NCBI RefSeq assembly: GCF_003334305.1
Contig: NZ_QOWS01000004.1
Reading direction: 5' to 3' (one strand)
Origin: Escherichia coli
GTDB lineage: Bacteria > Pseudomonadota > Gammaproteobacteria > Enterobacterales > Enterobacteriaceae
Length of the DNA stretch: 64,000 bases
Made by a program: the position numbers and the translations under genes. The notes beneath the pieces were generated by a model. That model searched no databases. It was given only the letters and a program-made list of their open reading frames with translations, and was not told the origin of the DNA. Positions 60,565 to 60,834 of the stretch are shown piece after piece. Position 1 is the stretch's first letter; each line of letters starts with the position of its first letter.

Positions 60565-60834
60565 AAATTATCCTTATTTTATTTTTAGGGTACCGTCCGG
60601 CGGTAAAAATAAAATACTCGTGCGGTTTAATGAAAGCAATTGAGCAGGGAAACCGATGTTTTGAAAACAGTGAATTATTAATTTCTTATATAACATTGAA
60701 TTATAGATATAACAACAAATGTCAATACGCATATCGTGATGCATATTACATAATTGATATTTATTGCATATAAATATTTGTGATCTACAACACGCTTTAT
60801 CTATTGCTTGTCCGCAAACGGACATATCAAGGTA

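Follow-up and report, generated by a model that had tools for sequence, protein, structure and literature searches.

The AT-rich tktA–cmtB spacer of Escherichia coli: a probable native, CRP-controlled control region of the operon cmtBA-yggPFDC

The AT-rich stretch at positions 60565–60834 of a 64,000-nucleotide section of an Escherichia coli contig (the window, that is, the whole stretch of DNA that was analysed) is the spacer between tktA and cmtB minus the tktA terminator. Very probably it serves the operon cmtBA-yggPFDC as a native, CRP-controlled control region placed directly after that terminator. In the proposed mechanism, CRP binds a first box and would bind a second one 44 bp downstream of it, both at fixed distances from the cmtB start codon. 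Transcription would probably start about 40 nt before the ATG, at a weak sigma-70-like promoter, or else further upstream at a CRP-proximal promoter. A perfect 13-nt inverted repeat in front of cmtB would most simply be read as an operator for an operon-specific repressor, or otherwise as a leader hairpin; H-NS may bind the AT-rich spacer and add to low expression. The region is real but ordinary, being an already known and catalogued CRP target in a well-studied genome. Only the conserved inverted repeat and the insertion of an SPFH gene with hypervariability at the spacer are mildly new, and the significance of the analysis goes little beyond annotation.

Location and gene order

The region starts right next to the cmtB start codon, with 60565 as the first upstream base, and stops at 60834, just short of the tktA terminator. 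The genes and boundaries needed below are as follows.

56451–57416, minus strand: yggF/glpX-like gene
57413–58690, minus strand: yggP
58705–60093, minus strand: cmtA
60121–60564, minus strand: cmtB, with the ATG at 60564–60562
60565–60877, minus strand: tktA–cmtB spacer (313 bp), probable control region of the operon cmtBA-yggPFDC
60830–60867, minus strand: intrinsic terminator of tktA, with a GC stem (60838–60848/60853–60863) followed by a U run
60878–62869, minus strand: tktA

No other annotated features were found in the spacer in the RefSeq records of near-identical strains and of K-12 MG1655 (MG1655 coordinates equal window coordinates plus 3,018,766). A 601-bp query around the region found a match in each of the collection's 5426 complete E. 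coli genomes, with identities of 100 % to strain H15 and 99.3 % to K-12 derivatives. The tktA terminator is a perfect 11-nt inverted repeat that sits directly after the stop codon, and all genera compared have a hairpin at the same place; its RNA fold reaches −19.2 kcal mol−1 (z −4.2), and none of 200 shuffles folds as well. An 83-aa open reading frame (60574–60825, minus strand) fills the spacer. It is not annotated, and other genera keep only 39–67 open codons as their longest frame; it was rejected as a chance open frame in AT-rich DNA.

At the yggC end of the locus, about 3 kb (52162–55238) separate epd and yggC in the window strain and likewise in strain H15. This segment encodes a PPC-domain DNA-binding protein and an ECF transporter (S and T components and two ATPases). 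The epd–yggC spacer of ETEC H10407 measures 284 bp only.

CRP binding and CRP-dependent expression

Two boxes that match the CRP consensus were located in the spacer, each with two mismatches to TGTGA-N6-TCACA.

60779–60794: CRP box 1, TGTGATCTACAACACG, centred at −222.5 from the cmtB ATG
60735–60750: CRP-like box 2, CGTGATGCATATTACA, centred at −178.5, 44 bp from box 1

The first of these is a documented CRP target. Table 1 of the CRP ChIP-seq study of ETEC H10407 (Haycocks et al. 2015, PMC4287617) lists a high-confidence cmtB peak with the site TGTGATCTACAACACG, which is found letter for letter at 60779–60794 of the window; the H10407 and window spacers differ in three of 313 bases. As published, the peak centre lies 188.5 bp from box 1. 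The three neighbouring peaks (ygfI, galP and nupG) show an equal shift of +180 to +195 bp against the RefSeq record, and because they share this coordinate offset the cmtB peak centre falls on box 1 after correction. Independently of the cmt locus, it may be recorded that the Table 1 peak centres deviate by about 180–195 bp from RefSeq NC_017633.1 (3,368,992–3,408,173) in all four peaks checked, and that any mapping of the peaks from PMC4287617 needs to be corrected for this shift.

By genomic SELEX, a CRP peak was assigned to the spacer "cmtBA-yggPFDC< <tktA" with the box CGTGTTGTAGATCACA, which is box 1 (60779–60794) read on the other strand (Shimada et al. 2011, PMC3105977). In the same study the activity of a cmtB-lacZ fusion was lower in a crp mutant, and CRP was classed by its authors as an activator. 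The primers of this fusion (PMC3105977) span window positions 60565 to about 60989 and thus cover the whole spacer; the fusion is plasmid-borne and may escape chromosomal silencing. It has therefore been shown by others that cAMP-CRP binds box 1 in vivo and in vitro and that the spacer confers crp-dependent expression, and from the binding together with the crp-dependent fusion it follows that the operon is under positive catabolite control. The occupancy applies to box 1 only, and box 2 is, by its letters, a putative second CRP site. At the position of box 2, a box with two mismatches or fewer is present in most genera and also in the long spacer alleles of E. coli described below, and the position forms a conserved block in the alignment.

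The arrangement resembles that of mtlADR, a PTS control region with multiple CRP sites, in that CRP boxes lie upstream of a mannitol-type PTS operon; the cmt genes are paralogues of mtlA. As at other CRP-activated sugar-PTS promoters, occupancy by CRP in vivo goes together with a CRP-dependent fusion. Box 1 (sense strand CGTGTTGTAGATCACA) is similar to one of the CRP sites of mtlA/yibI, CATGCTGTAGATCACA. The upstream region of mtlA in MG1655, judged by reading rather than by a computed GC content, differs in having neither the extreme AT-richness nor the 13-nt repeat of cmt. A common descent of the cmt and mtlA control regions was considered but is not supported, as the likeness is limited to the CRP boxes and can be explained by their closeness to the CRP consensus.

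Conservation of the arrangement across genera

A scan for CmtB, by using one genome per species, gave 32 loci. Outside Escherichia the order tkt, a spacer of 302–347 bp, cmtB and cmtA was found in Citrobacter (many species), Salmonella enterica subsp. arizonae and diarizonae, Silvania, Raoultella, Lelliottia, Superficieibacter, Huaxiibacter and an Enterobacter MAG. The GC content of the spacer is 0.29–0.39 in every genus, against 0.47–0.54 in the flanks, and in most taxa the centres of CRP-like boxes fall exactly at −222.5 and −178.5 relative to the ATG. Conservation in the alignments is restricted to motif blocks: over the distal segment (−270 to −79) the identity between lineages is otherwise 55–62 %, which is near the shuffle baseline of 55.3 ± 2.3 %. 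Judged by this comparison of sequences, the AT-richness is ancestral and conserved across genera and is no mark of foreign DNA.

A typical enterobacterial tkt-cmtBA locus occurs on a contig labelled Chryseobacterium sp. 18061, and a 297-bp contig labelled Alkalicoccobacillus porphyridii holds a CmtB segment that is 99 % identical at the protein level to E. coli CmtB. Both contigs probably represent contamination or mislabelling in public assemblies.

Base composition, phasing and curvature

In a sequence-only reading, 60565–60834 had been described as an AT-rich region with phased A/T tracts upstream of the cmt operon, typical of H-NS-silenced promoters and in keeping with the cryptic status of the operon. 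Its coordinates and its composition were confirmed. The GC content is 0.304 for 60565–60834 and 0.319 for the 313-bp spacer, far below that of the window (0.518) and of its pooled intergenic DNA (0.434). With 0.227, the lowest 150-bp stretch of the spacer is also the lowest among the 29 intergenic regions of the window, and among the 200-bp stretches of the 64 kb, 60606–60805 (GC 0.265) ranks second from the bottom, with a lower value only upstream of gcvT. TpA steps are frequent (0.115 in the spacer against 0.043 in the window), exactly as base composition predicts. The extreme AT content would be accounted for as a conserved feature of a control region, made up of T/A-rich promoter elements, the flanks of the CRP boxes and the A/T arms of the inverted repeat.

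The stretch upstream of gcvT (28514–28713, GC 0.26) is the sole 200-bp stretch of the window that is more AT-rich than the cmt spacer. It adjoins a small annotated hypothetical ORF (28666–28749) and coincides with one of the highest peaks of predicted curvature (22° per turn at 28666).

The phasing did not hold up. AA/TT periodicity in the spacer equals that of shuffled sequences, and the spacings from tract to tract are irregular. For 60565–60834, the Fourier power of AA/TT in the 10–11.5 bp band was 0.55, against 0.56 ± 0.28 for dinucleotide shuffles, 45 % of which reach the observed value; in the core (60660–60800) the power lies below the shuffle mean, and 96 % of the shuffles reach it. 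Curvature prediction, which had been proposed as a check, gave an average result for the spacer and a low one for the string that had been quoted as phased, which was located at 60686–60721. A wedge model was used with parameters entered by hand, for which a phased A6 control gave 27° per turn. The mean for the spacer was 6.5° per turn, against 5.9° for the window, and the quoted stretch reached 2–6°; a single local peak (17° per turn at about 60647) ranks 14th in the window.

Possible silencing by H-NS

The AT-rich composition of the spacer is the kind of DNA that H-NS prefers. H-NS may bind here, although such binding is not needed to explain the composition, and silencing of cmt is plausible as a reasonable guess from composition alone. 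In its full form this explanation states that the spacer is a site of H-NS nucleation and silencing, that filaments occlude the promoter and render the operon cryptic, and that CRP acts partly as an anti-silencer. We regard it as possible, if somewhat improbable.

AT content well above average over at least 200 bp, a feature of H-NS targets, is found at 60606–60805 (GC 0.265, against 0.518 for the window). More generally, the GC content is 0.23–0.27 over 150–200 bp, and at 251 non-contiguous positions between 60412 and 60820 a 50-bp window reaches 65 % AT or more. An anti-silencing role would fit the long distance from the CRP boxes down to the best promoter candidate, and the fast evolution of the distal control segment is a pattern that has been linked to H-NS-bound upstream regions (PMC4720273). 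Against this, the spacer has neither helical phasing nor unusual curvature, and the fusion that carries the whole spacer is active and CRP-dependent. Horizontal origin, which is typical of H-NS targets but not obligatory, was not found either: the arrangement and the AT-richness are kept in about 12 enterobacterial genera, which makes the locus ancestral to the family rather than horizontally acquired. The motif TCGATAAATT is a high-affinity nucleation site for H-NS. It has no match in the spacer within two mismatches, and its four matches within three mismatches lie below the composition-matched expectation of 6.2.

One published sign of H-NS binding is ambiguous. The transcription unit cmtBA-yggPFDC is flagged as bound by H-NS in at least one of the strains K-12, SE11 and SE15, with yggD marked as part of an "H-NS-bound transcriptional unit" (Higashi et al. 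2016, S2 Table, PMC4720273). The flag denotes H-NS on promoter, intergenic or coding DNA of the unit and is thus unlocalised, and the unit name cmtBA-yggPFDC is also attached to epd, pgk and fbaA (PMC4720273). The epd–yggC spacer of K-12 is independently marked "HNS" (Shimada et al. 2014, PMC3946193). As epd, pgk and fbaA share the flag and the epd–yggC spacer carries its own mark, the flag may refer to the latter and is therefore not assignable to the cmtB promoter. Direct data on H-NS occupancy of the spacer or on its expression in an hns mutant were not found in the literature on cmtA, cmtB, yggP, yggF and tktA.

Among known systems, bgl invites comparison. It is a "cryptic" operon with a very AT-rich promoter and a CRP site, for which H-NS binding and derepression have been demonstrated experimentally. 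The cmt operon shares with it the very AT-rich promoter region, the reputation of being cryptic and a CRP site in the promoter; it differs in that a signal of phasing or curvature is missing and that the locus is conserved across genera, and no comparable H-NS data were found for it. The name "cryptic" for the cmt operon presumably goes back to the original description of the ORFs adjacent to tkt. AT-richness by itself should accordingly be taken neither for H-NS silencing nor for foreign DNA.

Candidate promoter elements

Elements of a possible promoter for cmtB were collected from the sequence and the alignments.

60700–60725, minus strand: perfect hexamers TTGACA (60725–60720) and TATAAT (60705–60700), 14 nt apart (sequence and alignment)
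60687–60695, minus strand (read from 60695 to 60687): TGtTATATA, a possible extended −10 element at a conserved AAC..TTGTT block
60604–60639, minus strand: best-conserved candidate sigma-70-like promoter, with −35 TTGCTT (60639–60634), a 17-nt spacer and −10 TATTTT (60616–60611)
60575–60616: perfect 13-nt inverted repeat, TATTTTATTTTTA and TAAAAATAAAATA, with a 16-nt GC-rich centre (inverted-repeat scan)
60571–60575, minus strand: Shine–Dalgarno sequence AAGGA of cmtB, 6 nt before the ATG and conserved in the alignment

The best-conserved candidate has a predicted start at about 60604, that is, at −40 from the ATG, and lies in the invariant blocks ATTGnTTTC and CGnGTATTTTaTTTTTA of the alignments. 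A sigma-70-like match (−35 TTGaTT, 17 nt, −10 TATTTT) of at least 7/12 with a start at −40 was obtained for 21 of 32 taxa or alleles. At standard thresholds, the promoter scan gave no strong sigma-70 promoter on the cmt strand of the spacer, as is to be expected if the promoter depends on an activator; the cmtB promoter appears to be weak and activator-dependent. In the literature no mapped start site of cmtB was found, and the Cappable-seq supplements hold no coordinates in the range. Relative to the predicted start at 60604, the CRP boxes would lie at −138.5 and −182.5, too far upstream for canonical class I or class II activation; relative to the possible extended −10 element at 60695–60687, box 2 would lie at about −62.

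The perfect TTGACA/TATAAT pair is not listed by the promoter scan, and a normal sigma-70 promoter would need its hexamers to lie further apart than 14 nt. Across genera only the TTG is invariant, the rest being specific to the short allele of E. coli. In theory, a small insertion between the two hexamers would provide the "cryptic" operon with a consensus promoter.

A conserved inverted repeat in front of cmtB

The 13-nt inverted repeat overlaps the candidate −10 element and start site and ends at the Shine–Dalgarno sequence. Across 30 sequences, drawn from about 12 genera, its arms hardly vary, with 94.7 % of arm cells paired, and the arm motif does not recur in the window at one mismatch or fewer. 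We infer that the repeat is a local control element. For studies of the cmt operon it offers a concrete handle for finding the start site, the local regulator and the inducer.

The repeat could be an undescribed operator for an operon-specific repressor, which may act by way of the MtlR-like protein YggD (FumE) together with a PTS component, so that this repressor, and not H-NS, would silence cmt. As a complete account this is put forward only tentatively, and we consider it rather doubtful. If it is true, the repressor keeps the "cryptic" cmt operon off as long as a sugar alcohol is missing, and the far-upstream CRP boxes come into play only after derepression. That the repeat overlaps the best-conserved promoter candidate speaks for an operator; classical palindromic operators likewise cover the −10/+1 region, and at cmt a perfect 13-nt repeat lies over the −10 and start candidates in front of the ribosome binding site. 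The arms are 29 bp apart from centre to centre, which, unlike the spacing in classical operators, is wide for a single dimer. YggD/FumE is a paralogue of MtlR. In published ChIP-exo data no peaks were obtained for this protein, which is encoded in the operon itself (PMC8464067).

Alternatively, the transcribed repeat might work as a hairpin of the leader RNA, with a role in mRNA stability or in the control of translation near the Shine–Dalgarno sequence, and not as a DNA operator; this is judged unlikely. On the sense strand the fold pairs the arms of the repeat and ends 1 nt before AAGGA. Several centres can lengthen the stem (CCG/CGG, ACG/CGT), and every one-sided arm change still allows wobble pairing on the sense strand (A-U to G-U in 9 sequences, U-A to U-G in 6), which is a weak point in favour. 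On the other hand, the single-sequence fold has a z of just −1.6, the inner helix is paired to 67 %, and no measure exceeds its shuffle controls. Covariation in the arms was not above that of shuffles, and RNAalifold predicted no structure and no pairs. An Rfam search of the spacer brought no family near its threshold, the best scores being 16–23 bits against thresholds of 45–94, all of them on the tktA terminator. Moreover, a start at the best-conserved promoter would leave the left arm of the repeat untranscribed.

Spacer polymorphism and insertion of an SPFH gene

Within E. coli, the tktA-proximal part of the spacer is variable.

60643–60876: hypervariable, allele-specific part of the spacer; matches break at 60642

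The short, window-type spacer is carried by 3571 of the 5426 complete genomes. The match ends at 60642 in 1817 genomes, where about 1.25–1.5 kb with an SPFH/Band-7 gene lie between cmtB and tkt. The inserted gene is annotated as "prohibitin family", encodes 302 aa and lies on the plus strand, divergent from cmtB; its product matches Pfam Band_7 (PF01145) at 1.7e-32 and is weakly similar to HflC and HflK. The gene is also present in E. albertii, E. whittamii and a cryptic Escherichia lineage and is absent from the other genera sampled.

Long and short alleles are colinear (semi-global alignment, z 6.2 against shuffles) with about 56–61 % identity over the distal segment, while their flanks are 92–100 % identical. 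Both CRP box positions are kept in the long alleles, and the AT-richness is equal in the two allele types. Among themselves, the long alleles are 93–100 % identical over the whole insert and 71–91 % identical over the distal control segment, which is unusually diverse for E. coli.

That the spacer of the window might be a deletion scar, the remnant of a horizontally acquired island with the SPFH gene, is suggested by the presence of this gene at the site in one third of E. coli and in other Escherichia and by the sharp break at 60642/60643, but this was rejected as highly improbable: the 313-bp spacer is colinear over its full length with, and similar in length to, the 310–318 bp spacers that Citrobacter, Salmonella, Silvania and Raoultella planticola have without the gene, nothing in the spacer matched the inserted gene significantly in a local DNA comparison with the long allele, the AT-richness does not differ between the allele types, and the retained CRP box positions place the insertion of the SPFH gene distal to an intact control region. 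Because its length and colinearity match those of genera without the SPFH gene, the short form is read as the ancestral empty site. In E. coli populations the spacer is a natural insertion site and a hotspot of hypervariability, a point of relevance to typing and to studies of regulation at this locus.

Two minor observations concern the neighbouring genes. Over the last 500 nt of tktA (60878–61377) the haplotypes are 93–95 % identical, against 97–99 % elsewhere in the gene, as if an old haplotype block persisted or recombination had a boundary near the insertion site. In E. coli PG20180057, which carries a long allele, the yggF/glpX-like gene is split or truncated by an internal deletion and is annotated as a fragment plus a pseudogene.
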